Virus record (IMG/VR): IMGVR_UViG_3300034175_000063
Coordinates: 13,649 to 77,648 of that record
From: a virus
Reading direction: 5' to 3' (one strand)
DNA: 64,000 bases
Below, one piece after another: positions 16,895-42,156 of the stretch. The first letter of the stretch is position 1, and each line of letters begins with the position of its first letter. The notes beneath the pieces were generated by a model. The model was given only the letters and a program-made list of their open reading frames with translations. It searched no databases and had not been told where the DNA came from. The translations under genes were made by a program, and so were the position numbers.

Positions 16895-18549
16895 TACCAG
16901 ACCCCCATACGGACGCGCAGCACATTGTTACTGTCAAATACCTGCGTCAACCCGCCAGTCATAAGCGTGCGCGGCACGCCGGCGTAGCCTGGACTGATGT
17001 TGATCTGCTTGGCGATGATATTGTCGGCGTCCAGATATGCGACCTTGACCTTACCGTTCTCCACGATGAACGAACCCGACTCGTCCCGCAGCTTGCTGAA
17101 GGTGAGCTTGTTGATCACTGCTTCGTCGATGAATGTCTCTTGACCCGAGATGATGAACGGCTTACGCATGTTGGCGCCGGTTCGACCCACCCAGAACGAG
17201 TCCACATCGAAGCCAGCCTGAACAGTTGTGCCGTCGTTGTACGCGCCAAAGCCGCCAATCAAGCCGTTCACATTGAACTTGACCGTGTACAAAGCACCAA
17301 TGGCCGTGGTCTTACCGTTCACCGTGTCGATGTTGGTCTGCAGATTCGTCTGCACTGCAGCGATCTGGCCATTCAACGTAGACTGGGCCGTGGTGATCTG
17401 GCCAGATAGCACGTTGTCAGCCGCTGCTCGAGCGTTCGTCTCGGTCTGTACCGCAGCCGAGATTGCGGATGCCCGAGCTGTAGCTTCACCATTCACTGCC
17501 GAAGTAATGGCCGGTCCTACCGTAGCAAACTGCGTGTTGCGCGAAGACGTCTCAGCACTAACCGCATTGACCCGTGCAGTCGCTTCGGACTCGATCGCTG
17601 CCGTGTTCTGGCCAGCCTTGGTAAACAGGGTCGTGATGTCCGAGGCCAGCGCGCCGTCGGCGTTCGACCGAGCGGTTGCCTCCGACTGGATCGCTGCAGT
17701 GATCGCCGTGGTCGTGGCCCCATTGACCACAGCCGTCTTGGCGTAGAGGTCAGTGATCTGCGTCGCCGTGGCGCCGTCGGCAGTCACACGGGCATCCCGC
17801 TCGGTGATGACCGCAGCGTCGGCCTGGTTCACCCGAGTGAACAGCGTGACCACATCCGTGGCGATGGCTGTGTCCGCAGCGACCCGCAGGTTTCGTTCTT
17901 CGGTTACAGCTGCCACCACACCTGGGCCGACGCCGGCAGCCAGGACGTTGATCTGATTAACCAGGGCCGAGTCGCCCTCCGTGCGAGCAGTGGTTTCGTT
18001 TTGCACGATGACCATGGCACCTTCGAGCTGGGTGCCCAGCTGAGCGATGACACCTTGCAGCAGCTCGTTATCTTCCAGACGGTTCTCGATCTCACCAGTG
18101 ATCCGGTCGTCGATCGGCTGGATGCGCAGGATCTCCGTCTTCAACGCCATGGCCAACACACCCATGTCGATCTTGCCTGTCAATTCCTCGATCAGATCCT
18201 GAATCAGCGGCCGGGCCAAGGCAGTTGCCGGCCCGATCACCTCACCGTGGGTGCCGTTGACCGACACGAACTCGATCCAGTAGTAATACCGCAGGCCGAC
18301 ATTCACCTTGTCGTAGAAAAACCCACCGGAAACTTCGGCGTATTTCAGCGATTGGTTGAACTCTGGCAAAATACTACGATACAAAATCGTGTACGCCAGT
18401 GCGTGTGGGTTGGTCGTTGGATAAGTCCAGTTGACGTCAATCCCGCCGAATGCTGGCGTGGCTGTTAGCAAACTGACATTATCTGGATCCCCTGGCAACG
18501 GGCCGGACCACCCACCTGTACCGCAGACGCCTTCACTTGTGCAAGACAT
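16894..18549 (-). CDS. J-like tail tip/fibre protein (FnIII-like N-terminus, coiled coil, DUF1983-like C-terminus)
   Basis: YYYWIEFVSVNG, repeated AI.SEATAR..AD, PFIISGQETFIDEAVI, terminal VFDSNNVLRVRMGVW. Confidence 0.8.
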   Translation of the reverse strand: MSCTSEGVCGTGGWSGPLPGDPDNVSLLTATPAFGGIDVNWTYPTTNPHALAYTILYRSILPEFNQSLKYAEVSGGFFYDKVNVGLRYYYWIEFVSVNGTHGEVIGPATALARPLIQDLIEELTGKIDMGVLAMALKTEILRIQPIDDRITGEIENRLEDNELLQGVIAQLGTQLEGAMVIVQNETTARTEGDSALVNQINVLAAGVGPGVVAAVTEERNLRVAADTAIATDVVTLFTRVNQADAAVITERDARVTADGATATQITDLYAKTAVVNGATTTAITAAIQSEATARSNADGALASDITTLFTKAGQNTAAIESEATARVNAVSAETSSRNTQFATVGPAITSAVNGEATARASAISAAVQTETNARAAADNVLSGQITTAQSTLNGQIAAVQTNLQTNIDTVNGKTTAIGALYTVKFNVNGLIGGFGAYNDGTTVQAGFDVDSFWVGRTGANMRKPFIISGQETFIDEAVINKLTFSKLRDESGSFIVENGKVKVAYLDADNIIAKQINISPGYAGVPRTLMTGGLTQVFDSNNVLRVRMGVW

Positions 18550-28600: not shown

Positions 28601-28936
28601 ATGGATAACGACCAGAAGACCGAACACGCCATTCAGCGTGCCGGCATGACAGCCCCCCGTATCACCCCCGATCAGGTCAATGATCTGATGGCTCGCGTCC
28701 ACATCGACACCACGGTGTTGCCGGGCACGACCACCACGATCGGTTCCGCGAACCTGGTCAGCAAGGATGGCAAGCGCACCTTCTGCCTGGCGATCGGCCA
28801 CTCGGCCTGCGTCAGCCCGGAAAATTTCAGCGCCTCCATCGGTGCCGACATCGCCACCAGCAAAGCAACGCAGATGGCCAAGGACAAGCTGTGGGAACTC
28901 CTCGGCTTCGGCCTGTTCCAGGGGATGGACAAATGA
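28601..28936 (+). CDS. Phage gp49/66-family protein (Acb4-like nucleotide sponge candidate)
   Basis: TAPRITP, G.SACVSPENF...IG..IA...A.DKLWELLGF signature. Confidence 0.75.
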   Translation: MDNDQKTEHAIQRAGMTAPRITPDQVNDLMARVHIDTTVLPGTTTTIGSANLVSKDGKRTFCLAIGHSACVSPENFSASIGADIATSKATQMAKDKLWELLGFGLFQGMDK

Positions 28937-29529
28937 GCCTGCACCCTACCCGCCGCCCATTCGAGGCCCGCGTGATCGCAGAAAAATCCGAGCTCGACGT
29001 CCGCCTGTTCTCTCTGGAACAGTTCTTCCTGAGCGACCAGTTCACCAAGGTCGACGAACCAGAACAGTGGCGCTTGAAGCGTCAGTTCACGGCCATGGCC
29101 GAATACGCCAAGATCCTGGGCGAACGTATTGCAGCGTTCACCCCGGTTGAACCGGTCACCAATCTCGACAACCCTGGCCCGCGTGGCCATGAGAAGTCGA
29201 TCCCGGTGACCGAGCTCAATCCGGAACTGGCCGGCACGGCGTTGTTCAAGGAAGAAGTCCCGATCGGCGCCAAGCCAATCGAAGACATCGACACCTTCGC
29301 CATGATGGTCGACCAGTGGCACGGTAAGTGTATGGAGCAGGGCAACCGCCTGCTCGAGATCCCTGAAGGCACCGAGGTGACCGTTGAAAACCATGCGGAG
29401 CCGGGCAAGGTCATCCAGATGAACCTGGACGGCCCCTACCTACATGTGTTCCGTGTCGGCGTCGAGTCGGCCCTGAACGTGTTCAAGGATCTCCCTTTCG
29501 GCGCCAGCCTGGAAGACGCACCGCAATGA
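28933..29529 (+). CDS. fusion of a crAss001_48/Y16Q-like helical domain and a probable conserved N4-type C-terminal domain
   Basis: RVIAEKSELD.RL..L..F.....F......EQ..L..Q...M..Y..IL.ERIAAF, then linker, then F...V..WH......LLEIPEG...F..GV..AL.....LPF. Confidence 0.7.
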   Translation: MSLHPTRRPFEARVIAEKSELDVRLFSLEQFFLSDQFTKVDEPEQWRLKRQFTAMAEYAKILGERIAAFTPVEPVTNLDNPGPRGHEKSIPVTELNPELAGTALFKEEVPIGAKPIEDIDTFAMMVDQWHGKCMEQGNRLLEIPEGTEVTVENHAEPGKVIQMNLDGPYLHVFRVGVESALNVFKDLPFGASLEDAPQ

Positions 29530-30101
29530 GCCTGATCCGCGTGGTCGGCTTCGACCCATCACTGCGGAATTGGGGTGTGGCCAAGGGCAACATCGACATG
29601 GAAAAGGGCGTTCTCGTCCTCGATCATGTCGACGTCATCCAGCCCAGTCTTCCCACCGGCAAGCAGGTTCGTCAGAACTCGCTGGACCTGGAGGCAGCCA
29701 ACCAGCTCGCATCCATGGCCCTGAGCTTCGCAAAGGGCGCCCAGGCGATCTTTGTCGAAGTCCCGGTAGGAAGTCAGTCCGCTCGCGCGATGGCCTCCTA
29801 TGGCATCTGTGTGGGCGTCCTGGGGGCATTGCGGGCCACAGGCATTCCCTTCTTCGAGGTCACCCCGACCGAGGTGAAGCTGATTGCACGAAATCGCAAT
29901 GCCACCAAGCTCGAGATGATCGAGTGGGCAATGGCCCAGCACCCTGAAGCACCCTGGCCGATGTTCAAGCAGAACGGCGTCGTTCAGGTGAGCCAGGCAA
30001 AGGCCGAACACATGGCCGATGCCACCGCCGCCATTTATGCCGGCGTCCGCACCACCAGCTTCAAACAGTCGCTGCATCTGATGCAATTCAGGTCAGCATA
30101 A
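29526..30101 (+). CDS. ruvC: RuvC-like Holliday junction resolvase
   Basis: VVGFDPSLRNWG, IFVEVP, VTPTEVK, ATKLEMI, HMADA. Confidence 0.85.
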   Translation: MSLIRVVGFDPSLRNWGVAKGNIDMEKGVLVLDHVDVIQPSLPTGKQVRQNSLDLEAANQLASMALSFAKGAQAIFVEVPVGSQSARAMASYGICVGVLGALRATGIPFFEVTPTEVKLIARNRNATKLEMIEWAMAQHPEAPWPMFKQNGVVQVSQAKAEHMADATAAIYAGVRTTSFKQSLHLMQFRSA

Positions 30102-30736: not shown

Positions 30737-30913
30737 ATGAATGTCCTCAAGTGGTTTGGCTGCGTCATTGCAGCCATCCTCTTGGTGGCAATCGTGATTG
30801 GCGTATATGCGTTCATCCACATCATCATCGCGGTCGTGACCGTGGTGTTCCTGGTGTGGATGGCTGCCATCGGCATTCGCGCTTACTTCAAGAGCCGACC
30901 GCGTAAAATGTAA
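30737..30913 (+). CDS. small membrane protein (58 aa; absent from ORF track)
   Basis: MNVLKWFGCVIAAILLVAIVIGVYAFIHIIIAVVTVVFLVWMAAIGIRAYFKSRPRKM. Confidence 0.7.
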   Translation: MNVLKWFGCVIAAILLVAIVIGVYAFIHIIIAVVTVVFLVWMAAIGIRAYFKSRPRKM

Positions 30914-31027
30914 TTCGCTGCCCACCACCCAGATAGGCTGGGGGCAGATTCAACAGGATGGGGCACATCTACCTTCAAAAGACCGAAGGGCACGGGCGGG
31001 AACCCATTGTGGCGTGCTCCACCCTGT

Positions 31028-31665
31028 TGATGCAGGTCTTGTTAGTCGGCTGGACGACAATCCGTCCGTGAGTTCTTGTAACCTGGTGTGAAGCCGGGGA
31101 ACAGCCACTTCACCTACGAGGTTCTGATCTGAAACGCTTGTGACCCCTGATACGGGCATGGTTTAGCGCATCCATAAAACAGAGCATCAACACGTTAAGC
31201 AGCCCCGCGTCAGTGGGCAGCACCAACACCCGAGCGCCGGGACGGAGTAGGCCAGGAAATTTGTGGCCGAAACGTAGTCCCGCTACCTGTAGTCAAGGCA
31301 GGTCGCTCCGGTGTTGGAGATGGTGTAAGGCGCAAGCTGGCTGCGATGAAAGACCTGGGCTATTCCCCAGCGTGAAATAAGCACGTCCAGAGGACCGGGT
31401 TCGATTCCCGGTATTCAACTAGAGGTATGCGGTTCGAGTCCGCTCGCTGGCCGAGATTAGGTAAATGCCATAGGGGTTCGAGTCCCCTTGCCCGGTAGCT
31501 TTATGCTTTACGGGACACGGGTGGGAGGCGGCTTGTAGTAGAATCACCGAGCAGCGGACAAGTCCAGTCCATCGTGAGGGTAGGCCAGCTGGCATCCCAA
31601 GCAATAGCGTAAACAAGACCGTGGGGAGGGTGCAACATAGTTCCACGTTAAGCTACAGTGCATCA
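31028..31665 (+). ncRNA. candidate large ornate structured RNA (~640 nt, possibly starting at ~30918)
   Basis: No credible ORF; 5'/3' long-range pairings, nested multi-way junctions, three GGTTCGA(T/G)TCC T-loop hairpins, terminator immediately downstream. Confidence 0.7.
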
Positions 31666-31667
31666 TT

Positions 31668-31703
31668 AAAGCCCCGGTCCTCCTCACAGAGTCCGGGGCT
31701 TTT
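31668..31703. terminator. bidirectional intrinsic terminator between ncRNA region and vRNAP
   Basis: AAAGCCCCGG...CCGGGGCTTTT. Confidence 0.8.
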
Positions 31704-31707
31704 CTCA

Positions 31708-34700
31708 TTACTGCCCGTTGTACACCGCCGTGGTGAATGGTCCGGTCAGCAGGCCCACCGTGGTCACCGAATCCAACGAGCCGAAGTAGCTCAGCGCGCC
31801 GGCGTTAAACGGATTGCCGAAGTGGTGGATGAAGCTCGAGTCCATCACCGTCGGCTGGTCCCCCAACATGTGCTCGGCCGCCATCAAGGCGAGTACCCGG
31901 CCAGGCGAGTCCTTATAAATACGTGCAAGCACCTTCTGGATGCGAACATAGTATTTCGAGAACATGATCAACCCCGTGTCATTAGCGTACTGGATTTTCC
32001 GGTGCGTCGGGACGTCGTAGTTGATGAACGCTTCGGAAGCGCGCTGCACAGCTTGCTCATGGGTCATCGACTTGACGTCATGCTGGTACAGCGTGTACCG
32101 GGCCAGGAAGTCACTGATCTGCGTTGCGTAGCTCATCATCTTGTATGGCGCCGTGCTGTGGTGCATGGTGAGCAGCTGCACGCCTTTCAGGATGTGTGGG
32201 TTCACACCTTCGATGAAGCCGTCGACCTTTTCGTCGAACCGCGACTTGTACGAGTAGATGTCCTCATCGACGCCCACATCCTCAACGATGGTCGGCATCA
32301 GGCCGGCGTCGATCAGCGGACGGATCGGGTTGCGGGCCAGGCTGTCTTCCAAGCGTTGGATCAGGTAGGCGGCTTTGCTCGCATTCATGCCAGGTTCAAA
32401 GTGACCGATCGTCTGCTGGTGCTTCAAGGCGAACAGCTTGGCATTGTCCTGCTTGTATTCCCAGGCCGACTTGAACGCCACACGATGGCTGTCGAAGATC
32501 TGCTTCGGCGACACGCCCATCAAGAAAAGCTGCGACCAGTTCGACCGCAGGTTGCCCGTCATGGTCGACCACGATTTGACCACCAGGTTGGCCTTCGTCT
32601 CCTTGACGATCGCCTGCCAGATGTCTTCGGACTGGCGAGCACGCAGCTGGGCCTTGTCCTTGAAGGCATAGCTCATGATCTCGACGAACATGTTTTCGAC
32701 GAAGCTGCGCTGTGCCTTTTCCTTTTCAAACACCGTGCCGATGCTGAGCTTGCGATAGCCGAAGTTCATGTCGAGGATGTCGTTGCGGACCAGCATGCCA
32801 TCCTTGCCGAACAGGCTCTTGGCCAGCTGCTGGGTATCCCGCGGCAGCATGTCCCAGATTTCACGCAGCTGCGGATCAGCCGACGTCGGGCCGACCTGCA
32901 GATAGGCTTCCGGATGATCGGCAAAGTCCAGCTTGTACTGTTCGTGCAGAGCCTTGATGGCGTTGGCGTTCTGCACTTTCGACGCTACCTTGTCGAACGT
33001 GTTGCCGGCCATCGAGCCCAGCAGGTGATCGGTACGGTTGTCCCGGTTCAGCAGCTTGTCCTTGACGACGTTGCTCATCATGTAGCGGTAGTTGGTCACG
33101 TCACCGTTCGGGTTTAGCACTGGTGCCATGTGGGCTTCCTTGACCGCTGTTGGATCGAAGCCAGTACCAGTGAACATGCTTTGAATGGCCGGACGCTTAC
33201 CGATCCGGATCGCTGCCATGTTCATCGCGTTCTGCTGGCCAGCCACCGATACAGGGTGAGCACCGGTGATGACCTGGCTACCCTTGGCTTTGGAATCGGT
33301 CGTGCTGATGATGCCCGAGTTCCATTGTTTCAGGCCGCCGTCACGCAGCGAGTAGATCCGCTTTTGGTCAGATACCGGGTCCGCTGCGTCGCGCGGCAGG
33401 TAGCCGGGCATTGCCGTGTAACCTTTCTTGACCAGCTCGATACCCTCATCATCGGTGGCCATCACCACCGTCATGTAGGGATCGTAAATCTCCGGGACGT
33501 AGCCTTTCATCTGCAGGGCTTCACTGTCCGAGAACAACTTGTCCTTGCTCTCGGCCTGCAATGCCGTGTGGGTCTTCATGATCATCTCGATGCCATGGCC
33601 ACCGTCGGTGCGTGCTGCTTCAGCGGCAAACACCTCGGACAACATCTTCATGTCGACCCGGCTGGCGTACTTCAGCGCGTAGAGCGAAGCCAGACGATCA
33701 ATGATCGGGGCGGCAGCCAGAGCCTGGGCCGGCGTGACACTCATGCCCGTGCCATACAGGCGGGCGATGTTCCCGGCGTTCATCAGCTGGTGGGCCGTGG
33801 CCACGCGGCTGGTGGCCATGAAGTAGCCCAGCCCTTTCGCCGAGTTGATGTAGAACCGGTTCATCTTGCCACCGGCAACGAGCTGAGCTTCATGCGAGTC
33901 GATCTCCGTCTGCAGGTCACTCGTGCTGTTGACCAGGTTCTGCAGCTGGGCCACCGTGTAGGTGCCGAGCAGGGACTGCATGTCACCACGCAGGACCACC
34001 GCGGTGAGTGCTTTCTTCTGGTCGTCGGTCAGATCCTCACCTGCATTGACGAAGGATCCCGATACCGCTTTCGAGATGTTCGAGATGGTGTCCTTGCGGA
34101 TACCCTCCAAGTGCTTGGTGCCACGCAGCAGGAAGTGGTAGACCTTGTTCATGTCGGTTGCACCGCGTACTTCGTTCATCAGCGATGCTGCAACGCCGAG
34201 CTGGCCGGTCATCGTCTTGTCGCGCAAGCGAAGGTAGGCATCCATGATGGCGTCGACGCGATCGCCGGCAACCGCCGACATGACATTGCCACCCAGCTTC
34301 ACGAAGGCGTTACCGCTGTTCTGGAAGAAGGGCTTCTTGCCGAAGGCTTCCACCGCCGCGCGCACCGAGTCGCTCATGTCTTCGGCCGTGTCGGCGATGC
34401 GGTTCAGCGTCTGCGAGGCGCCGGACGTGATCCGGTTGTGACGCTTGGCTTCGATCTCGACCATCTGCTTGACCAGGGCGTTCAGCTTCTTGTCAGCCAT
34501 CTGGCCGCGGAAGGTCTTCGTCAGGCGGCCGGCCACCCAGCTCATGATCGTGTTGAAGATCTTGTTGAGCCGTTCGTTGAAACCCATGCTTGGATTGTTC
34601 GTGGCGCCGGTGGCAGTGTGAAACTGCAGTTGCTCGCGGAAGCCAGAATGCACCAGGCCCAGGGCGGCAAAGCGGCTCATGTAATCGGACTTGCCGGTGG

Positions 34701-37700
34701 CATCCTGCTTGATGGCGAAGACGAAATCGTAGAGTGCCTTGGCCTGATCCTTTTCGATCTGGGTGGCCGTGGTCCAGTCGCCCTTGTGGAAGGATTCGAC
34801 CGTCAGCTTGGCCCGGACCTCGTTGTAGAGGCGGGTCATTTCCTTGTAGGCGACCGTCATCACACCGTCGTTGTGCGACAGTGCAGTGCGCATCGTGGCT
34901 TCTACCTGCTCCAGGACGAAAGCTTCCTGATCGGTGAAACCGAAACCAGCAGCCAGAGACTCGGATGCGAACGGGGCCACGCCGGTGCTCAGTGCATCAG
35001 CGTAGACATCCAGCGGATCCTGTGCGGTCTGCTCCATGAGAGCGGCCTTGAAGGAACCGAAGGGACCATACACCGACTTCACCAGCGTTGACAACAGCCC
35101 TTGCAGGTGCGTGCTGTGTTCAGCCGAGATCTGGGCGCCGTTGTTCGACTGGGCCAGCGCAGCGTAGATGTCCAGGGTCGACAGGTCACGCACGTTTGCG
35201 GCGCCAGGCGTCGAGATGGCCAGGGTTACCGGGCCGGCTGCTGCCGGTTTGTTTTGCTGCGCTGCCTGCTCGAACAAGCCAGACACATTCGACAAGAACG
35301 TGGTCATACCGCTGCTCATTGCAGCGTTGGGACGACCGAAGAACAGAGCTGTAATCTTGTCGATAAATGCGGCCATTGCCGTGATCAGGCGGTTGCCACC
35401 GGTCTTCGACGTGTAGCTGATGGCGGCCATTACATCGTTCTGGAACTCAGCGTTGGTCATGCCGTAGGCAATGAACTCGTCCAGGTTCTCAAAGACACGG
35501 GAGTAATACGCGATGCGGTCTGGCGACTCGCTGCTGGCCACGTATTGCTTGGCCATTTCCATCAACGCTTCGAGCTCTTCGACCAGCTTCAGTGCATCAC
35601 TGGTATAGGGCTTGGCCGGCTTCTCTCCTTCGTTGTTAATGATCTCACCATCGCGGATCGCCTGCTCAGCGCGCGTCGTCTGCACCAATGCAGCGTGCAC
35701 CATCTCGTGCAGCAGTACCTCGTTGTCGAGGCCCGAGTACACAAAGTCGTCGGACATCACGTAGATGGCTTGGTTTTCAATGCCGTCAGCTACGTTTATA
35801 TACATGCCGCGGGCATTCTGGCTGATCTCGTGGTGGATCAGGTCAGCCGGTACGGTGTCCTTGGTGATGTATTTCACCACCATGTTGCCGGCGACAGTGC
35901 GCTCCAGCTGTGACAGCAGCTTCATGCTAAAGTCGTCCTTCATGGTCTTGCGCAGCAGGGCCACCACTTCCTTGACGGTTTGATTCGGCTTGGCCTTAAA
36001 TGCTGCGGTTAGCTTAGGATCATAACGGCCGAGAGGCTTGCCCAGTTGAGCAACTGGGTTGGCGTTCACCGGCTTGGTTTCCATCTCCGGGTCGGCTTTC
36101 GCTGCTCCCTTTTTCTCTTTGGCCGGGCGGCTGGCCATCTCAGCCTTGATCGCTGCTTCCAGCTTATCTGACACCGAGGTGAGGGCCGAGCGGTCGACGT
36201 CTGAAACACCGACCTCAAGCGCCGAGCGCAGCGAGGCCGCCGAGGAACGGTGGGAAGACTCGACAGCGAAGGCACCACCCTCCATCGCATATTGATTCAC
36301 CGCCGTCATGGTCGACATCGTGTCCAGCTTCATGCTGTCGGCACGATAGGCCATGCTCTGGGCCAGCTCAGCCTGCAGGTACAGCACGCCTTCAGGTGGG
36401 ACATCGTGCTTCTCAGCGAAGGTCACCAGCGACTTGGCCAGCTTGGCCATGGTCGCATCCGATACCTTGCCGGCCGCCAGCATAGCATTCAGTCCACGCA
36501 CCGTGCGCAGCAGAGCGTTCTTCACCTCGTTCGCCGGCGAGTAGTTCAGCATGGTGTCCCAGGTCGCTTCGTTCATGCGACGTGCTGTCTCAACGATGCC
36601 GCCGACACCGTGACCCTGTGCATCGTGGATGTTGAGGGCTTGGCCATCGACGTTCGCACGCACCGAGATAGCCGAGTCGGCCGAGTGCATCGACACTGGG
36701 ACCATGGCCACACCTGGGCCGGCTGGCGTTGTCTCATAGCCGTGCACCTGGGTGCTCTTGCTACCATCTTCAAATGGCTGGCCGAACTTCACCACATTCT
36801 GGTAGGTGTCCTTGTCCGAGAGCTTGCGCTCGGCTTTGGCCACCATGATGCCTGCCTCCAGGTCTTTCGATTCTTGGGACATCGGCGTGTTCATCACCGG
36901 CAGCAGGGCGGCCGTCTGCTTGCGCAGTTCAACTTCCTGAGCGTTGGTGAGATCGTGGATCGGCACACCGGTCTTCGGATTCACTGCCATCTTGCCGTCG
37001 GCGACCAGCTGCGTGATCATCTCTTCGCGCATGCCCTGGTACACAGCGTTGTAGACTTCAAACGTCAGCTGTGCTGTCTTGTTGAACTCGGTACGTTGGG
37101 CGATGAAGACCTCGAAGTCCTGCTTCATGGTTTCTTCCACGGCCACGCCGAGCGAGTCCTTGAAGGCGCCCTTGAGTGTCTTGATCTGCTGGCTGGTGAA
37201 CTCGTGTTCCATCAGGTCGATGTTGGTCGGCAGCCGCACACCCATCACCTCCAGGTGCAGCAGGATTTCGCCTGGTGTCATCTCGCCTTCTTCAATCGCC
37301 GTGTAGATCGAGTCGACGAAGTTGTCGGCCATCGAGTCCACTGCGTTGTTCACCGACGAACCGAAGACCATCGCGGTCAGCGGGGTCTTGATGATGTTCC
37401 GGCCTGCCTTTTGCACGACGCCTTTGCTGTCGGCCAGCTCGCCAGTGAAGGCGTAGATCGAAGCCATGAGCTCAGGATCCAGGTTGGCAGCATTGATCGC
37501 CTGCGTCATGTGCAGGGCCGTGTTCTCGTACAGATCGAAGTTCTCCGGCGCGTCGCGCCAGGTGTTGTATTCGATATGGTCGTTGCCTTGCTCGAAGAAG
37601 CCACCGCGGTTCAGTAGGGCGTACATCTCCTTGACCGTGTTGGCCGCGCCCAGCAGCAGATGCGACAGCATCGGGCCGTTGGTCACACCGTCCACCTCGG

Positions 37701-40700
37701 CCATCATCTGCGTGGTGAACTCGGTGGCGCCGGCCTTCTTGGCCACTGTCATCTGGGCCATGGCCATCAGCGCATCAAGCGAGTGCATGTCCTCACCACC
37801 AGCCTTCACGCCGGCCACCAGCACTGCCTGATCGTTCTCGGACAGCACACCGCTTTCGGTGCCGGTCAGCGACTTAACGAGCACGGCCACGGCTGCTTTG
37901 ATCTCTGGCTTGGCGACCAGCTTGTTGAAGTCGGCGAGGGCTTTTTCCTTGCTCTTCTTGTCGGTCTTGACGCCCAGTCCTTCTGCAACGCGCAGCTTGA
38001 AATTCGTCATGGCTGCGGTATCGCCGAAGGCAATCTTCGTTTCCCAGGCCGAACGGTACAGCATGTGACGGTGGATCTTGCTGGTCTGTGGATTGATCAT
38101 GTTCGTGGCGATACCGACACGCTGCTGCATCCAGACAGAGTGTTCAAAGTACATGGCCGCGTCACTACCGACTTCACCGACGTAGTTCATGAACCGCTCG
38201 AGCTCGCGTGCCAGGCCATCATTCTTGGCCTGCAGGGACTTGCGGCGGCTCTTGTGCACGACCTTGTTCGGGTCTTCCTGACCTGCGATCTGCAGCATGG
38301 TGTCCGGGGACACCTGGCCGGCCAGGTTGAACATGTCGGCCCGGACATAGCTCGCCTCGGCGTCATCACGACGCACCTGCTCAGCCAGCTCCGAAGGGAT
38401 GGCCATGCTGGTGTTGCGGGTGGTCTTCTGCTTCGATTCCACCGGTGACGACGACGGCGCCTTCAGTGCCGGCTCCACGCCGAACAGCTTGTCGAGGATC
38501 CCGTTCGTTCCCTTGTTGGCTTGGAAAATCGCTTCGGCCTGCTCACCGAGTTTGCCATCGGCACGGGCCAGCTTCAGGAAGTAGAACTTCGCATTGGTCT
38601 GGGTTTTGTCGCTCTTCGTCAGTTCAGCCATTTCCTGGCCGGTGATCGTGTTGCGGGTCAGGATACCCTGGTCCAGCAGCAGCTTCATGGCATGGGCACC
38701 GATCGACGCTTCCAGATCGGCCTGCAGGTTACGCGGAGCGGAAGCCAAGGATTTAAGACCAAGGGCCGCAACAATCCGCTGGCCGAGTGCATTGGCCACG
38801 ATGTTCTGACGTACGCCGATGTGCTCCAGTGCGTTGTATTCAAGCGTCGACACCGGTGCAGATTCATCCCGACCGAGGATGGCATTGATGTCTTCCTTGG
38901 TGTTGAGCTCCGGACGTGTGGCCGCTTCAGCGACCCAGCTAAATGCACCGTAGGCGATTGCCGTCATGGTGTTCTCATCGAGCTTGCCGTCGGCGTTCAT
39001 CAGGAACTGGATCGGGTCTTCAAAACCGTAGCCGGGATTGCCCTTCCGCAGGTTGGCCGTGATGTTACCGGCCCATGCCGTGGCCGTGGCCAGGAAGGTT
39101 TTCAGTACCAGCTTTTGCTCATCGCTTGGGGCTTCCTTCGACGACAGGAATTCCGACAGCTTGAAGCCTTCGGCCTTGTTCTTCCATGCCGAGAGGAAGT
39201 CGACCAGCTTAGCCAGCGGACGCTGGGTGCCGGTGTCTTCATTGCCGGCCGACTGGACGAAGTGTGCCCCGACCAGGTTCTGTTCCTGGTATGGCAGCGA
39301 GGTGTCATGTGCGACGTCGAAGACGGTGAGCGTGGTGGTCTTTTCCTTGACCTCCTGGGTCGCCGCAGCTTCAGGCGTGGCCGTCTCTGCAGCGGGCGCT
39401 GGGTTCGCTTCGCTCACCGCTGGCTGCTCGACTGCTGCCGCCTTCGCTGCTGCTTCCCGTGCCTCACGTTGGGCTTTGGATTTGGCCAGGTTGTCAGCGA
39501 CACGCTGGTCCTTGTCGTTGCCGGCCAGGACGTTTTTCTTCGGCTCGGCCGATGCCTCATTATTTGCATCTGGTGCAGATTTCTTGCGTGACTCGATCAC
39601 GTAGCCCGACTTGTCGGCTTTGCGTGTGGCCTTCAGGCTCTCACCCAGGAAGTTGTCGTATAGATACTTCTCCGCTTCCAGCGACGTGGCGAATTCCTTG
39701 CCGACGTGGACGACTTTTTCTTTCTTCTCAGACTTAGGGGGAGCTTCAGCGGTGGGGAGTTCAGCTGGTACAGCTGGACGTGCGGTGTCCTCCTCAATTT
39801 CTGGGGTACTGATATTACCGGAGGGTACATTGTCTTGCTTGGAGGATTCGGATTGTACGCCAAATTTCAAAGATGTGGCGGAATTCATTTCGGTATGGGT
39901 GGCACGCAACGCTTTCGCCTCGTTGGCGATCTCGTTGACCAGGCGCCCGGAGTTCAGGGCCAGGCCGCCGTTGGCACGGAGATCCTTTTCCTTGAAGGTG
40001 CCAGGCGGGTGGGATTCCCATTTCTTGTCCGTCTTGTTGTAGACGATCTGGGCGCCCATACCGTAGTCGGCCATGGCCTCGCGGGCGGTGGCTGCCTTGT
40101 CTTCGTGGTTGATGGCGAACGTCTCCAGCCCGGTCATGGCACGGTCGGCCGACACCTGGCTGTTCGAGGCGATCGCTGCTGCGATGCGCGAGCGGTATTG
40201 CGAGATGCCGACGTTCTTGGCAGAGCCAAACAACACCTCTTGCGACACCTTCGACTGGGTAGACAGGGCGTTCTCGGCCTGACGAGCATCGCTGAACACG
40301 CGAAGATGCGCACGCTGCGAATCCGTCAGCGAGTTGGTGGTGTCATCAGCCAGCTGCAACGCTGCTGTGTGGGACAGAGCATCCGGCTGCGACATCGACA
40401 GGTTCACCAGTCGGGTAGCAGCGGTGTTGTCGGCCGCTGCTGCGGTGACCAGCGTGCCTACTTCTTCCGGCGTGGCCACTGCCTCATTGGCGTTGACCAG
40501 TCCACCCATGAAGTTGCGGCCGGCTGAGAGCTGGCGATCCAGAGCGGACAGCACAGCACGCGACTTGCTCGCTGCCTGGGTGTCGGTGGCGTCAGCCAGC
40601 ACATCCTTCCAGCCGTCGCGGAAGTCCTGCAGTTCGGCGATCTTGACCGCATCGGTAGTCTTGGCGATCTCCGTCTCGTAGAAGCTGACCTTGGCTTTCG

Positions 40701-42078
40701 CCTCGGCGACGCTGGCCGGCGAGAAAGTATCGGCATCGTTCTGTGCCTTGGCATGCTGTTCTTCGATCTGGGACAGCAGCTCGCCGGCGCGCTTCAGGTT
40801 CTCGGCTTTGATTTCCGGGGTCGTTTCCGGACGCATGGCGTGGGCAACCAGCACACCCATGCCGCGGGAGAGGTCGTAGTCACGGCTCTTCGGATCCACG
40901 AAGCTGGTAATGTCGTTGCTGGCCACTGCAGCAGCGACCCGTTGACGAGTCTCAGCAGTGGTCACACGCTCTTGAGTTTCCTTGGCCACGGTGTTCGCGC
41001 TCTTGTGCAGCGAACCCATGCCGACGCCCATGGCAGTACCTGCCACCAGGCCGGCGCCTGCGGCATTGCCGACGCCCTTCATGTAATCTTCCTCGCCCAT
41101 GGCGATGTTCGTGAAGAACTGCTCCTGTGCCGACTGCGGGAGCTCTTCGGTCACGCCTTCAGAGAAGCCTTCCTTCCCGATCTTGGCCAGCTTCGAGCCC
41201 TTCAGCGTACGTGCACCGGTGGCGATGTCGGTTGCTGCATCACCGAACACTTTGTTCGAGACAGCACCGATGGCGGCGGTGGTAGCACCAGCGGCCAAGG
41301 CCGGCAGAGCATAGTCCTCGTATTCACGGCCAGCGGCCTGTGCCTTATCAGCGACCGTACCAGCTGCTTGAGCACCTTCAACACCTGCACCAATGGCCGA
41401 CAGGCGGAAACCAGCAGCCTCAATAGCTGCCTTTGCAGCGGCGCCACCGGCTTCAGTGCTCAGGGCAGCCGTTTCGGCCATGCCTACACGGCCGGCTGCG
41501 ATCGCAGCTTCACTGGCCAGACGTCCTTCGACGGTTGCCATGGCGGCCTTGGCCGCGATACCACGCGCGGCAGCACCGGCCACACCCATACCGGCCAGCA
41601 TGGCAGGCAGGGATTCGGTCACGGTGCCCAGGATCGAGCGAGGATTGGCCAGCGAGGTCAGCACGGTGTCGCTGAAGCCTTCGGCTTCGGCTACCTTCTG
41701 ATCGGAAGCTTTCTGTGCAGCACTCAGGTGTTCACCCAACGCTTCGTTGGTGGCAGCTGGATCGTAGCCGATGGCACGCATACCCTCGCCGACGGCACCA
41801 CCAGTGGCCAAACTACCCAGGCCAACCACCGAAGCACCCAGGTTCACCACACCTTGACCCAGCTTGATGCCGACGTCACCGACCGTACCCACCAGGTCAG
41901 TTTGACGAACTTCCGGGTTGGCGTTACGCAGCATCCGCTCTTTGAGCGAAGTCTGGTACACCGAGTCCAGTGCAGCCATCTTGGTCTGACGGGCAGCAGT
42001 AATCTCGGCCATCTTCTGGTCGAGCAGTTCTTCGCTGGCTTTAGGCGCAGATGGGCTGGTGTAGACTGGATTGGTCAT
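31708..42078 (-). CDS. virion-encapsidated RNA polymerase (N4 gp50-like), 3456 aa
   Basis: Size, position, motifs INPQTSKIHR, EVDGVTNGP, RNIIKTPLTAMVFG, NIHDA; no Cys seen; AGGA SD before ATG 42078. Confidence 0.95.
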   Translation of the reverse strand: MTNPVYTSPSAPKASEELLDQKMAEITAARQTKMAALDSVYQTSLKERMLRNANPEVRQTDLVGTVGDVGIKLGQGVVNLGASVVGLGSLATGGAVGEGMRAIGYDPAATNEALGEHLSAAQKASDQKVAEAEGFSDTVLTSLANPRSILGTVTESLPAMLAGMGVAGAAARGIAAKAAMATVEGRLASEAAIAAGRVGMAETAALSTEAGGAAAKAAIEAAGFRLSAIGAGVEGAQAAGTVADKAQAAGREYEDYALPALAAGATTAAIGAVSNKVFGDAATDIATGARTLKGSKLAKIGKEGFSEGVTEELPQSAQEQFFTNIAMGEEDYMKGVGNAAGAGLVAGTAMGVGMGSLHKSANTVAKETQERVTTAETRQRVAAAVASNDITSFVDPKSRDYDLSRGMGVLVAHAMRPETTPEIKAENLKRAGELLSQIEEQHAKAQNDADTFSPASVAEAKAKVSFYETEIAKTTDAVKIAELQDFRDGWKDVLADATDTQAASKSRAVLSALDRQLSAGRNFMGGLVNANEAVATPEEVGTLVTAAAADNTAATRLVNLSMSQPDALSHTAALQLADDTTNSLTDSQRAHLRVFSDARQAENALSTQSKVSQEVLFGSAKNVGISQYRSRIAAAIASNSQVSADRAMTGLETFAINHEDKAATAREAMADYGMGAQIVYNKTDKKWESHPPGTFKEKDLRANGGLALNSGRLVNEIANEAKALRATHTEMNSATSLKFGVQSESSKQDNVPSGNISTPEIEEDTARPAVPAELPTAEAPPKSEKKEKVVHVGKEFATSLEAEKYLYDNFLGESLKATRKADKSGYVIESRKKSAPDANNEASAEPKKNVLAGNDKDQRVADNLAKSKAQREAREAAAKAAAVEQPAVSEANPAPAAETATPEAAATQEVKEKTTTLTVFDVAHDTSLPYQEQNLVGAHFVQSAGNEDTGTQRPLAKLVDFLSAWKNKAEGFKLSEFLSSKEAPSDEQKLVLKTFLATATAWAGNITANLRKGNPGYGFEDPIQFLMNADGKLDENTMTAIAYGAFSWVAEAATRPELNTKEDINAILGRDESAPVSTLEYNALEHIGVRQNIVANALGQRIVAALGLKSLASAPRNLQADLEASIGAHAMKLLLDQGILTRNTITGQEMAELTKSDKTQTNAKFYFLKLARADGKLGEQAEAIFQANKGTNGILDKLFGVEPALKAPSSSPVESKQKTTRNTSMAIPSELAEQVRRDDAEASYVRADMFNLAGQVSPDTMLQIAGQEDPNKVVHKSRRKSLQAKNDGLARELERFMNYVGEVGSDAAMYFEHSVWMQQRVGIATNMINPQTSKIHRHMLYRSAWETKIAFGDTAAMTNFKLRVAEGLGVKTDKKSKEKALADFNKLVAKPEIKAAVAVLVKSLTGTESGVLSENDQAVLVAGVKAGGEDMHSLDALMAMAQMTVAKKAGATEFTTQMMAEVDGVTNGPMLSHLLLGAANTVKEMYALLNRGGFFEQGNDHIEYNTWRDAPENFDLYENTALHMTQAINAANLDPELMASIYAFTGELADSKGVVQKAGRNIIKTPLTAMVFGSSVNNAVDSMADNFVDSIYTAIEEGEMTPGEILLHLEVMGVRLPTNIDLMEHEFTSQQIKTLKGAFKDSLGVAVEETMKQDFEVFIAQRTEFNKTAQLTFEVYNAVYQGMREEMITQLVADGKMAVNPKTGVPIHDLTNAQEVELRKQTAALLPVMNTPMSQESKDLEAGIMVAKAERKLSDKDTYQNVVKFGQPFEDGSKSTQVHGYETTPAGPGVAMVPVSMHSADSAISVRANVDGQALNIHDAQGHGVGGIVETARRMNEATWDTMLNYSPANEVKNALLRTVRGLNAMLAAGKVSDATMAKLAKSLVTFAEKHDVPPEGVLYLQAELAQSMAYRADSMKLDTMSTMTAVNQYAMEGGAFAVESSHRSSAASLRSALEVGVSDVDRSALTSVSDKLEAAIKAEMASRPAKEKKGAAKADPEMETKPVNANPVAQLGKPLGRYDPKLTAAFKAKPNQTVKEVVALLRKTMKDDFSMKLLSQLERTVAGNMVVKYITKDTVPADLIHHEISQNARGMYINVADGIENQAIYVMSDDFVYSGLDNEVLLHEMVHAALVQTTRAEQAIRDGEIINNEGEKPAKPYTSDALKLVEELEALMEMAKQYVASSESPDRIAYYSRVFENLDEFIAYGMTNAEFQNDVMAAISYTSKTGGNRLITAMAAFIDKITALFFGRPNAAMSSGMTTFLSNVSGLFEQAAQQNKPAAAGPVTLAISTPGAANVRDLSTLDIYAALAQSNNGAQISAEHSTHLQGLLSTLVKSVYGPFGSFKAALMEQTAQDPLDVYADALSTGVAPFASESLAAGFGFTDQEAFVLEQVEATMRTALSHNDGVMTVAYKEMTRLYNEVRAKLTVESFHKGDWTTATQIEKDQAKALYDFVFAIKQDATGKSDYMSRFAALGLVHSGFREQLQFHTATGATNNPSMGFNERLNKIFNTIMSWVAGRLTKTFRGQMADKKLNALVKQMVEIEAKRHNRITSGASQTLNRIADTAEDMSDSVRAAVEAFGKKPFFQNSGNAFVKLGGNVMSAVAGDRVDAIMDAYLRLRDKTMTGQLGVAASLMNEVRGATDMNKVYHFLLRGTKHLEGIRKDTISNISKAVSGSFVNAGEDLTDDQKKALTAVVLRGDMQSLLGTYTVAQLQNLVNSTSDLQTEIDSHEAQLVAGGKMNRFYINSAKGLGYFMATSRVATAHQLMNAGNIARLYGTGMSVTPAQALAAAPIIDRLASLYALKYASRVDMKMLSEVFAAEAARTDGGHGIEMIMKTHTALQAESKDKLFSDSEALQMKGYVPEIYDPYMTVVMATDDEGIELVKKGYTAMPGYLPRDAADPVSDQKRIYSLRDGGLKQWNSGIISTTDSKAKGSQVITGAHPVSVAGQQNAMNMAAIRIGKRPAIQSMFTGTGFDPTAVKEAHMAPVLNPNGDVTNYRYMMSNVVKDKLLNRDNRTDHLLGSMAGNTFDKVASKVQNANAIKALHEQYKLDFADHPEAYLQVGPTSADPQLREIWDMLPRDTQQLAKSLFGKDGMLVRNDILDMNFGYRKLSIGTVFEKEKAQRSFVENMFVEIMSYAFKDKAQLRARQSEDIWQAIVKETKANLVVKSWSTMTGNLRSNWSQLFLMGVSPKQIFDSHRVAFKSAWEYKQDNAKLFALKHQQTIGHFEPGMNASKAAYLIQRLEDSLARNPIRPLIDAGLMPTIVEDVGVDEDIYSYKSRFDEKVDGFIEGVNPHILKGVQLLTMHHSTAPYKMMSYATQISDFLARYTLYQHDVKSMTHEQAVQRASEAFINYDVPTHRKIQYANDTGLIMFSKYYVRIQKVLARIYKDSPGRVLALMAAEHMLGDQPTVMDSSFIHHFGNPFNAGALSYFGSLDSVTTVGLLTGPFTTAVYNGQ

Positions 42079-42156
42079 GGTATTCCTGGTTGATTCGGGT
42101 GAGAGCCCATTATATACAAGTTGCACTGGGTCAAGTAGTCTTGACCCAGATTTACT

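Follow-up and report, generated by a model that had tools for sequence, protein, structure and literature searches.

A structured non-coding RNA locus beside the virion RNA polymerase gene of an N4-like phage, and a double T-arm RNA family spread across phages

Introduction

What is encoded by a gap of 794 nucleotides (nt) between two convergent phage genes, when no credible protein can be read from it? This question is raised by positions 30914-31707 of the DNA considered here, a stretch of 64,000 nt (the window) which comprises bases 13649-77648 of a 77,648-bp IMG/VR virus record with direct terminal repeats (IMGVR_UViG_3300034175_000063). A sequence-only reading had placed in this gap a single ornate RNA of ~640 nt, closed by long-range pairing of its ends, carrying three T-arm hairpins and belonging to the GOLLD/ROOL class or to a new one. 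The analysis shows that the gap is a genuine non-coding structured-RNA locus, termed the island below. On balance, the island is probably a row of separately folded, exchangeable RNA modules in the tRNA slot of N4-like phages and not one global fold. One of its parts, module C, is a new, uncatalogued double T-arm, D-arm-derived RNA family of ~105-140 nt that is spread across phages. Coordinates are those of the window, and the features of the island lie on its plus strand.

A non-coding RNA locus in the tRNA slot

The plus-strand genes stop at 30913, the last being a hydrophobic open reading frame (ORF) of 58 amino acids (aa). Facing it, the minus-strand ORF at 31708-42126 (3472 aa) is an N4-type virion RNA polymerase (vRNAP), and 30914-31707 is the junction between the two stop codons. 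The earlier statement that ~770 bp here hold no credible ORF agrees with what was found: the ORFs inside the junction are short (33-75 aa), and four of them (54-75 aa) gave no credible match to PHROG or Pfam, the sole match being sub-threshold and irrelevant. Searches for known RNA families were equally negative. At gathering scores, cmscan with Rfam 15 had no match in the window. At E<=10, only noise was seen in 30850-31750, with no match to the GOLLD, ROOL or tRNA models and a best match to the transfer-messenger RNA (tmRNA) clan of 9.9 bits that covers a T-loop only, and noise alone was likewise returned for 31400-31560. ARAGORN called no tRNA or tmRNA gene in the window and did not resolve the gap into degenerate tRNAs.

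The sequence features listed in the sequence-only reading are all present where it had placed them. Its three T-arm hairpins lie at 31394-31412, 31429-31443 and 31472-31488, spanning 95 nt, and none is part of a cloverleaf, ARAGORN and the Rfam tRNA model both being negative. When the plus strand of the window was scanned for T-arm-type hairpins (G-C closing pair, 7-nt UUYRANN loop, stem of at least 4 bp), four were found, three of them within 31394-31488, against ~1.5 in shuffled sequence with both strands summed. The T-loops are correct in the plus-strand reading only; G-U pairs and compensatory changes fit this strand as well, and the claim of a structured non-coding RNA on it stands.

The position of the island is that of a tRNA gene. 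With a profile made from 20 vRNAP homologues, 79 N4-like loci were retrieved. Of 75 N4-like loci, 12 have a tRNA in the orientation of the island no more than 2.5 kb downstream of the vRNAP stop, which justifies the name tRNA slot. The proposed location in such a slot is thereby upheld, the near relatives L001 and L002 having a tRNA-Tyr there.

One large RNA or a row of modules

In the window the island is made up, after two 5' hairpins, of module A (31025-31192, a domain of ~168 nt), motif H (31191-31221), module B (31223-31317), the T0 region (31318-31423), module C (31424-31535) and module D (31536-31625), and then of a 3' tail and a terminator. Comparison of the gap with the 79 loci by blastn and nhmmer found only four that match. 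L001 and L002 share 93% amino-acid identity with the window in the vRNAP C-terminus; relatives with vRNAP at 54-79% identity were also found, and the comparison of the island took in L001, L002, L139, L128, L129 and metagenome contigs, the relatives at 54-79% standing outside it.

The content of the island differs in every relative. L001 and L002 retain 31536-31704 (~91% identity by blastn) and the H hairpin, and between H and D they carry a true tRNA-Tyr, a 68-codon ORF and a non-canonical tRNA-like element. The order in L139 is B, H, an extra stem-closed domain, A, H again and C, with D missing, A and B thus standing in the order opposite to that of the window. L128 holds B and C, and L129 holds D. 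Among Logan contigs, one relative at ~90-95% identity has 31030-31471 (442 nt) replaced by 266 other letters, while a second matches from 31427 on and differs directly upstream. The joins at 31029/31472 and 31427 place the breakpoints at module edges; 31427 marks the left boundary of module C in these metagenomic relatives, and 31472 a breakpoint.

Long-range pairing fares differently from these local units. The complementary segments that were proposed to pair the ends of a single RNA do exist, but both closing helices are unconserved in relatives and stand out little from chance, complementary 7-mers more than 100 nt apart numbering 24 against 16.6 expected (p about 0.11). The segment AACAAGACC (31612) is kept in L001 and L002, where its 5' partner GGTCTTGTT is absent. 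In L139 the GGTCTTGTT region pairs inside module A with a compensatory change, and module D is absent; in L129 module D is present with a different sequence at the position of AACAAGACC. Similarly, the domain closure proposed between AGCTGGC and GCCAGCT did not survive comparison, as GCCAGCT at 31584 belongs to a local hairpin that covaries in L129 and L001. Compensatory changes were found among homologues in at least five modules that close on their own (A, H, B, C and D). Because the global fold is unconserved across L001, L139 and L129, the island is read as beads on a string, and modules with compensatory closing helices of their own that are exchanged among relatives argue for a modular array.

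A single RNA of 640-790 nt, of the GOLLD/ROOL or a new class, would treat the modules as domains of one molecule with a variable part that tolerates tRNA insertion. The island has one terminator, a sigma-70 promoter scan of the gap found none and no internal promoter or terminator is recognisable. The minimum free energy fold reproduces the 31035/31612 helix, and size, phage location and tRNA association resemble those of GOLLD. Set against this, the GOLLD and ROOL models are without a match even at E<=10, no global architecture is conserved, the closing helices are not kept, L139 has the inverted order, and unrelated phages carry module C by itself, with tRNAs at its flanks or within short gaps. 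A fixed architecture of ~640 nt and membership of the GOLLD/ROOL class are not supported, and one large ornate RNA of any class is rather unlikely. Chance complementarity is to be expected over such a length, which calls for caution in naming a large ornate RNA from one sequence.

Several points weigh against the modular array and are to be set beside the evidence for it. Complementary 9-mers at long range are somewhat more numerous than expected (5 against 1.1, p about 0.03), which also speaks for the single large RNA. Folded singly, modules C, D and T0 are no better than shuffles (z = -0.35 for T0); the only sub-stretch that folds clearly better is 30914-31030, the two 5' hairpins together (-54.7 kcal/mol, z = -4.4, 0 of 200 shuffles as good). 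The whole gap has similar z-scores on both strands (-2.8 and -3.1), so that folding energy neither supports nor selects a strand, and it is comparative evidence that does so. Modules A, B and D rest on two to four homologues each, and covariation there comes from few sequences. Co-transcription and processing of the island are presumed, as is the elbow-mimic function of its modules discussed below. Finally, no true tRNA flanks the modules in the window; RNase P and RNase Z may therefore not separate them, and one long RNA could persist. Taken with these points, the row of independently folded modules is still held to be the probable arrangement.

Structure and distribution of module C

The unit that is best characterised is module C. 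It consists of the T1 hairpin (31429-31443), a D-arm-like linker UCGCUGGCCGAGAUUAGGUAAAUGCCAU (31444-31471), the T2 hairpin (31472-31488), a variable hairpin (31491-31514), a GGU-containing 3' segment (31515-31528) and the helix P1, formed by 31449-31453 with 31529-31533. The family is defined by T1, the linker UCGCUGRCCGAGAUU(n)GGUAAR, T2 and P1, in which UGRCC of the linker pairs with a 3' GGYCA. The window copy has all four elements at 31429-31533, its P1 being of 5 bp with one G-U pair.

The helices of the family covary. In all 33 distinct units the 4-bp stem of T1 is paired, with four pair types at each of three positions, and a U-U is conserved at the fifth position. T2 has a covarying stem of 4-5 bp, and both loops are UUCRANU closed by G-C. 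Matched variants of P1 include UGACC/GGUCA, UUGCC/GGCAA, UUACC/GGUAA, UAACC/GGUUA and UCGCC/GGCGA, and 19 of 31 units contain the complement of their own P1 pentamer, compared with 16% for foreign pentamers. In nine short units, 96.4% of the cells of the three helices are paired (slid controls, at most 48%), and covariation is 0.50 against 0.13 in shuffles, with 0 of 500 as high. The 24 linker and loop positions that are invariant across unrelated phages owe part of this invariance to the search pattern, which forces it. A second conserved GGU comes before the 3' strand of P1; after this strand there is usually a U-run or the next tRNA. In the same set of phage loci there are tRNAs whose D-arm agrees with the linker UGGCCGAG...GGU.AA, ATGGCCGAGTGGTTTAAGGC being one example. 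P1 was preferred to a local D-stem within the linker (GGC/GCC), which works in the window only.

Two further observations concern the same loci. In L216, L218, L221, L229 and L232, UGAC(A/U)G occurs just after P1 and is followed by a covarying hairpin with a GAAAGA loop; this element is also found in the N4-like L129 (~18310-18340), which is otherwise without module C. Loci L126-L242 contain tRNAs with a GGCCGAG-type D-arm that ARAGORN labels His, Asn, Gln or Ser, which suggests long-arm bodies with unusual anticodons in these phages.

Module C is distributed far beyond the relatives of the window. A 43-nt stretch of it has 93% identity to enterobacterial phages. The pattern GTTCRANTCN{8,14}CCGAGATTN{0,3}GGTAA found 38 loci in IMG/VR, on contigs of 40 kb to 412 kb; the T1 hairpin and the CUCGCUG context are present in all 38, and the second T-arm in all but one. 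By blastn, 59 of 50,697 phage records match, and among the matches listed the GenBank carriers are Rosemountvirus-like phages of Salmonella and E. coli with genomes of 52-57 kb. Cultured carriers among phages of Salmonella and E. coli include Salmonella phage BP63, in which the module occupies part of an unannotated gap of 486 nt, UPF_BP2, ZCSE2 and Escherichia phage fHy-Eco03. GenBank annotates no feature over the module, or a small hypothetical ORF only, and full-text searches of the literature returned no description of the motif. The covariance model R1, of which the window copy is one of the seeds, scores that copy at 77 bits (E = 6e-20), and among the 79 N4-like loci it detects the window, L139, L128 and one weak match.

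The same pattern gave 19 matches in 185,579 bacterial and archaeal genomes. Eighteen of these lack the hairpin context and were rejected as chance, and the only genuine one lies in a Rosemountvirus-like contig within a metagenome-assembled genome. Phage groups without any other nucleotide similarity to one another have module C in common; the family is restricted to phages, among whose groups it moves horizontally.

In some carriers the module is part of a tRNA array. Of 40 units, 10 start 0-1 nt downstream of a tRNA 3' end, and in three units another tRNA follows after about 65-70 nt. Where units are butt-joined to tRNAs in this manner, their excision would have to fall to the enzymes that process tRNAs.

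The other modules of the island

The island opens with a hairpin at 30918-30947, predicted by folding directly after the stop codon of the 58-aa ORF, and hairpins with a similar GAUAG-type loop are found at the same position in L139 and L129. The long imperfect hairpin that follows (30950-31030, also from folding) competes with the closing stem of module A.

Module A is common to the window and L139 only (80% identity). Its 9-bp closing stem in the window, TGTTGATGC/GCATCAACA, is replaced in L139 by a different, unrelated 9-bp stem, TGTAGGTAC/GTACCTGCA. From these two sequences, 45 pairs are predicted of which four are compensatory, and one of the four falls in CUUGU of GGTCTTGTT, which is locally paired with ACGAG. 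Motif H, recognised by sequence and nhmmer, is ACGUUAA followed by a hairpin with the 9-nt loop CGCGUCAGU; across four copies (window, L001 and two in L139) the loop CGCRUYAGU is kept and the stems differ.

Module B, common to L139 and L128, is a three-way junction. A stem of 14 bp closes it, one arm contains an internal loop, and a hairpin whose loop, GUAGUCAAGG, is invariant completes it. RNAalifold on three sequences gave 29 pairs, seven of them changed on both sides and two imperfect, and the nested domain that had been drawn at 31223-31317 is well founded on these seven compensatory pairs. In IMG/VR, the loop pattern of module B found only two known relatives and one coding chance match (L243), and in metagenome contigs at least 119 matches, none homologous by nhmmer. 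The pattern GTTAAGCNGCCCCGC also had at least 119 matches in IMG/VR; besides the known relative L007 none proved homologous, and most look like chance.

Module D is common to L001/L002 and L129 only, and its pattern was found only in the clade of the window. It combines the conserved single-stranded blocks CCGAGCAGC, AUCGUGAGGGUAG and CCCAAGCAAUAGCGUAAAC with two hairpins, 31556-31570 and 31584-31593, that covary (GGAC/GUCC with GGAG/CUCC; GCC/GGC with CCC/GGG); three of its 17 pairs are compensatory.

The T0 region is unique to this phage, with no homologue by nhmmer in the N4-like loci and no tRNA call. It contains an anticodon-arm-like hairpin, a variable-arm-like hairpin and the canonical T-arm 31394-31412, after which come 7 nt similar to the 3' strand of an acceptor stem, and it looks like a decayed or rebuilt long-arm tRNA without the 5' acceptor strand and the D-arm. 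A circularly permuted tRNA made of T0 and C was ruled out because the acceptor strands are not complementary. The truncated appearance of T0, and the intact tRNAs in the same slot of relatives, would suit an island of functionless, decaying remnants of a former tRNA gene cluster. Such a reading is disfavoured and very improbable: compensatory substitutions maintain the helices of A, B, C and D, and module C persists across phage groups of no other nucleotide similarity.

The 3' tail (31626-31668) is ~95% identical in L001/L002 and absent from L129. It holds the second copy of CACGTTAAGC (31644-31653). That this sequence occurs twice is correct, with exactly two copies at 31191 and 31644; as a 10-mer with one mismatch it is found three times in the window against 2.7 expected, which is no enrichment. 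The heptamer ACGTTAA, or a variant with one mismatch, repeats at module junctions in the islands of the window, L139, L128 and L001; in the window it stands at 31192-31198 before hairpin H and at 31645-31651 near the 3' tail. Possible roles for it are those of cassette boundary, processing site or promoter element.

Directly after the island, as had been noted, comes an intrinsic terminator (31669-31704, assigned to neither strand), the hairpin GCCCCGG...CCGGGGC recognised by sequence and folding. It has a stem of 9+3 bp, UUUUCU after it on the plus strand and an A-rich 5' flank, and its long loop is the reason why a simple terminator scanner missed it. It is kept in L001 with compensatory C-G to U-A changes, and is probably bidirectional, serving convergent transcription units. 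A perfect complementarity of 10 nt links the 5' side of the T0 T-arm (31390-31399, GAGGACCGGG) with the 5' arm of the terminator (31673-31682, CCCGGTCCTC); it is not kept in L001, which is without T0, and may be chance or an anti-termination pairing.

The place of the terminator bears on a further alternative. Processing signals resembling tRNAs (t-elements) are known from organelles, and the hairpins of the island could be elements of this kind, acting in cis in a 3' untranslated region to process, stabilise or terminate convergent middle and late transcripts without a role in trans. The island does end the plus-strand operon directly before the terminator, and lone T-arms such as that of T0 do resemble the organelle signals. 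About 700 nt of RNA conserved in sequence and structure far exceed what a 3' end needs, and the 24 invariant positions of module C, in part pattern-forced, persist next to different flanking genes; purely cis-acting elements are improbable.

Several elements of the relatives have a bearing on the slot itself. The tRNA-like element of L001 (5781-5895, on the minus strand of the locus and in the orientation of the island) is 115 nt long and has an acceptor-type pairing of 7 positions, a canonical T-arm and an encoded CCA end, with a stem of ~10 bp and a loop of ~20 nt in place of the anticodon arm; neither ARAGORN nor the Rfam tRNA model calls it. The 68-codon ORF between it and tRNA-Tyr is at L001:5906-6112 (minus strand of the locus). 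On the same strand, L001:5503-5589 is an element of 87 nt in the space that separates the island terminator from the vRNAP stop; its acceptor-like stem is of 7 bp (GGGGCAG/CUGCUCC) and it ends in ACCA, with no canonical T-loop and no counterpart in the window. The extra domain of L139 (2897-3037, minus strand of the locus), closed by the 15-bp stem CCUACACAUAGUCUG/CAGACUAUGUGUAGG, is also without a window counterpart and is a further cassette of the same island type. The nearest cultured phages are the Pseudomonas phages Littlefix, LUZ7 and LIT1, with ~41% identity in the vRNAP C-terminus. Unannotated gaps near the vRNAP stop are seen in Littlefix (L005:4507-5192, ~690 nt) and LUZ7 (L006:5251-5648, ~400 nt); they have no similarity to modules A-D, and that of Littlefix has a tRNA-Arg.

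Genes upstream of the island code for a RuvC-like Holliday junction resolvase (29526-30101) and, at 28891-29529, for a protein whose C-terminal domain is Mu Gam-like. Among public runs, the best DNA match to the stretch is a biocrust metagenome. No RNA run carrying the stretch is among the public runs listed, the single run labelled RNA-Seq being probably DNA.

Possible role of the island

Phage tRNA genes are now viewed as counter-measures against host tRNA-directed defences, and RNase P and RNase Z or RNase E have established roles in tRNA processing. Against this background a sequence of events can be suggested. The island would be transcribed as one plus-strand unit ending at the intrinsic terminator, and the array would encode modules A, H, B, T0, C and D as independent folds. 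In tRNA arrays, the 5' end of module C would be freed by RNase Z or RNase E and the next tRNA by RNase P. Each T-loop would then be capped by GG from the D-arm-derived strand, as in the elbow of tRNA, and module C would engage or titrate a host factor that reads the elbow shape, for instance an enzyme that modifies or processes tRNA, or a defence protein directed at tRNA.

Mimicry of the tRNA elbow toward a host factor is the mechanism that is favoured, and it is put forward tentatively. It is no more than possible that module C is a phage-specific double-elbow tRNA mimic that titrates or redirects a host elbow-reading protein, with the island as an array of swapped RNA-effector cassettes. The suggestion of a tRNA-related RNA or mimic in the tRNA slot is hereby retained in a modified form, as a modular island with a double T-arm family and not as one ornate RNA. 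The accompanying idea of a decoy for anticodon nucleases lacks a basis, since conservation falls on T-arms and a D-arm-like loop and on no anticodon loop.

If elbow mimicry is true, non-decoding tRNA-shaped RNAs would extend the contest of phage and host over tRNA to pure RNA mimicry, and the modules of the island would be swapped between phages in the manner of protein anti-defence genes. In any case, an anonymous gap of 790 nt now has defined parts with coordinates and secondary structures, and one of them is a widespread uncatalogued RNA family. As module C is present in easily grown phages of Salmonella and E. coli, its function can be tested by ordinary phage genetics and RNA biochemistry.

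Comparison with known systems

GOLLD and ROOL are long non-coding stretches of phages, often beside tRNAs or containing them. The island is a comparably long non-coding phage locus associated with tRNAs; unlike them, it has no model match and no conserved global architecture, and its modules move independently. Likewise, the species 1 and 2 RNAs of phage T4 are small, stable and tRNA-sized, lie within the phage tRNA cluster and are released by tRNA processing. Module C resembles these RNAs in being embedded in phage tRNA arrays, as its butt-joined units show, and no sequence relation to them was seen in the general blastn of phage records, which was not a dedicated homology test.

The bacterial Y RNA YrlA offers a parallel in its parts. 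YrlA has a T arm, a closed acceptor stem, a D arm and the motif GNCGAAN0-1G, and is encoded within 4 kb of the Ro60 gene on the same strand (Chen et al., 2014; PMC4201824). YrlA RNAs have also been found in phages, including a mycobacteriophage (PMC4201824; bioRxiv 10.1101/312249). Like YrlA (about 110 nt), module C is small, phage-borne, non-decoding and built of tRNA parts, with canonical T stem-loops, a D-loop-like GG element and a terminal helix that adjoins a short purine-rich motif of the CGA type. It could be supposed from this, and from its 3' U-run, that module C is a YrlA-like Y RNA tethering host Ro60/Rsr to an effector, with the CCGAG stem beside the terminal helix as the Ro60 site and the T-arms as the effector module.

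The remaining comparisons make such a role a distant prospect. Module C has two T-arms where YrlA has one, T1 stands at the extreme 5' end, there is no clear closed acceptor stem, the motif is NCCGAG and not GNCGAA, and the order of parts differs, the block NCCGAGAUU coming after the first T-arm. The YrlA model RF02553 (gathering score 69 bits) has no match at E<=10 in this phage genome or in 31400-31560, nor at E<=0.1 in five other module C loci. TROVE/Ro60 (PF05731) is absent from 11 of 11 carrier phage genomes (this phage and ten others, nine of these at least 90% complete), whereas YrlA is found close to Ro60, and bacterial genomes proper hold no genuine copy of module C.

A further comparison is with tRNA itself. 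Unlike a tRNA, module C lacks the cloverleaf, the anticodon arm and an acceptor stem ending in CCA. What it shares with tRNA are T-arms whose closing pair is of the G53-C61 type and whose loop is UUCRANU, a linker with the D-arm signature, and the tRNA slot in which it is carried.

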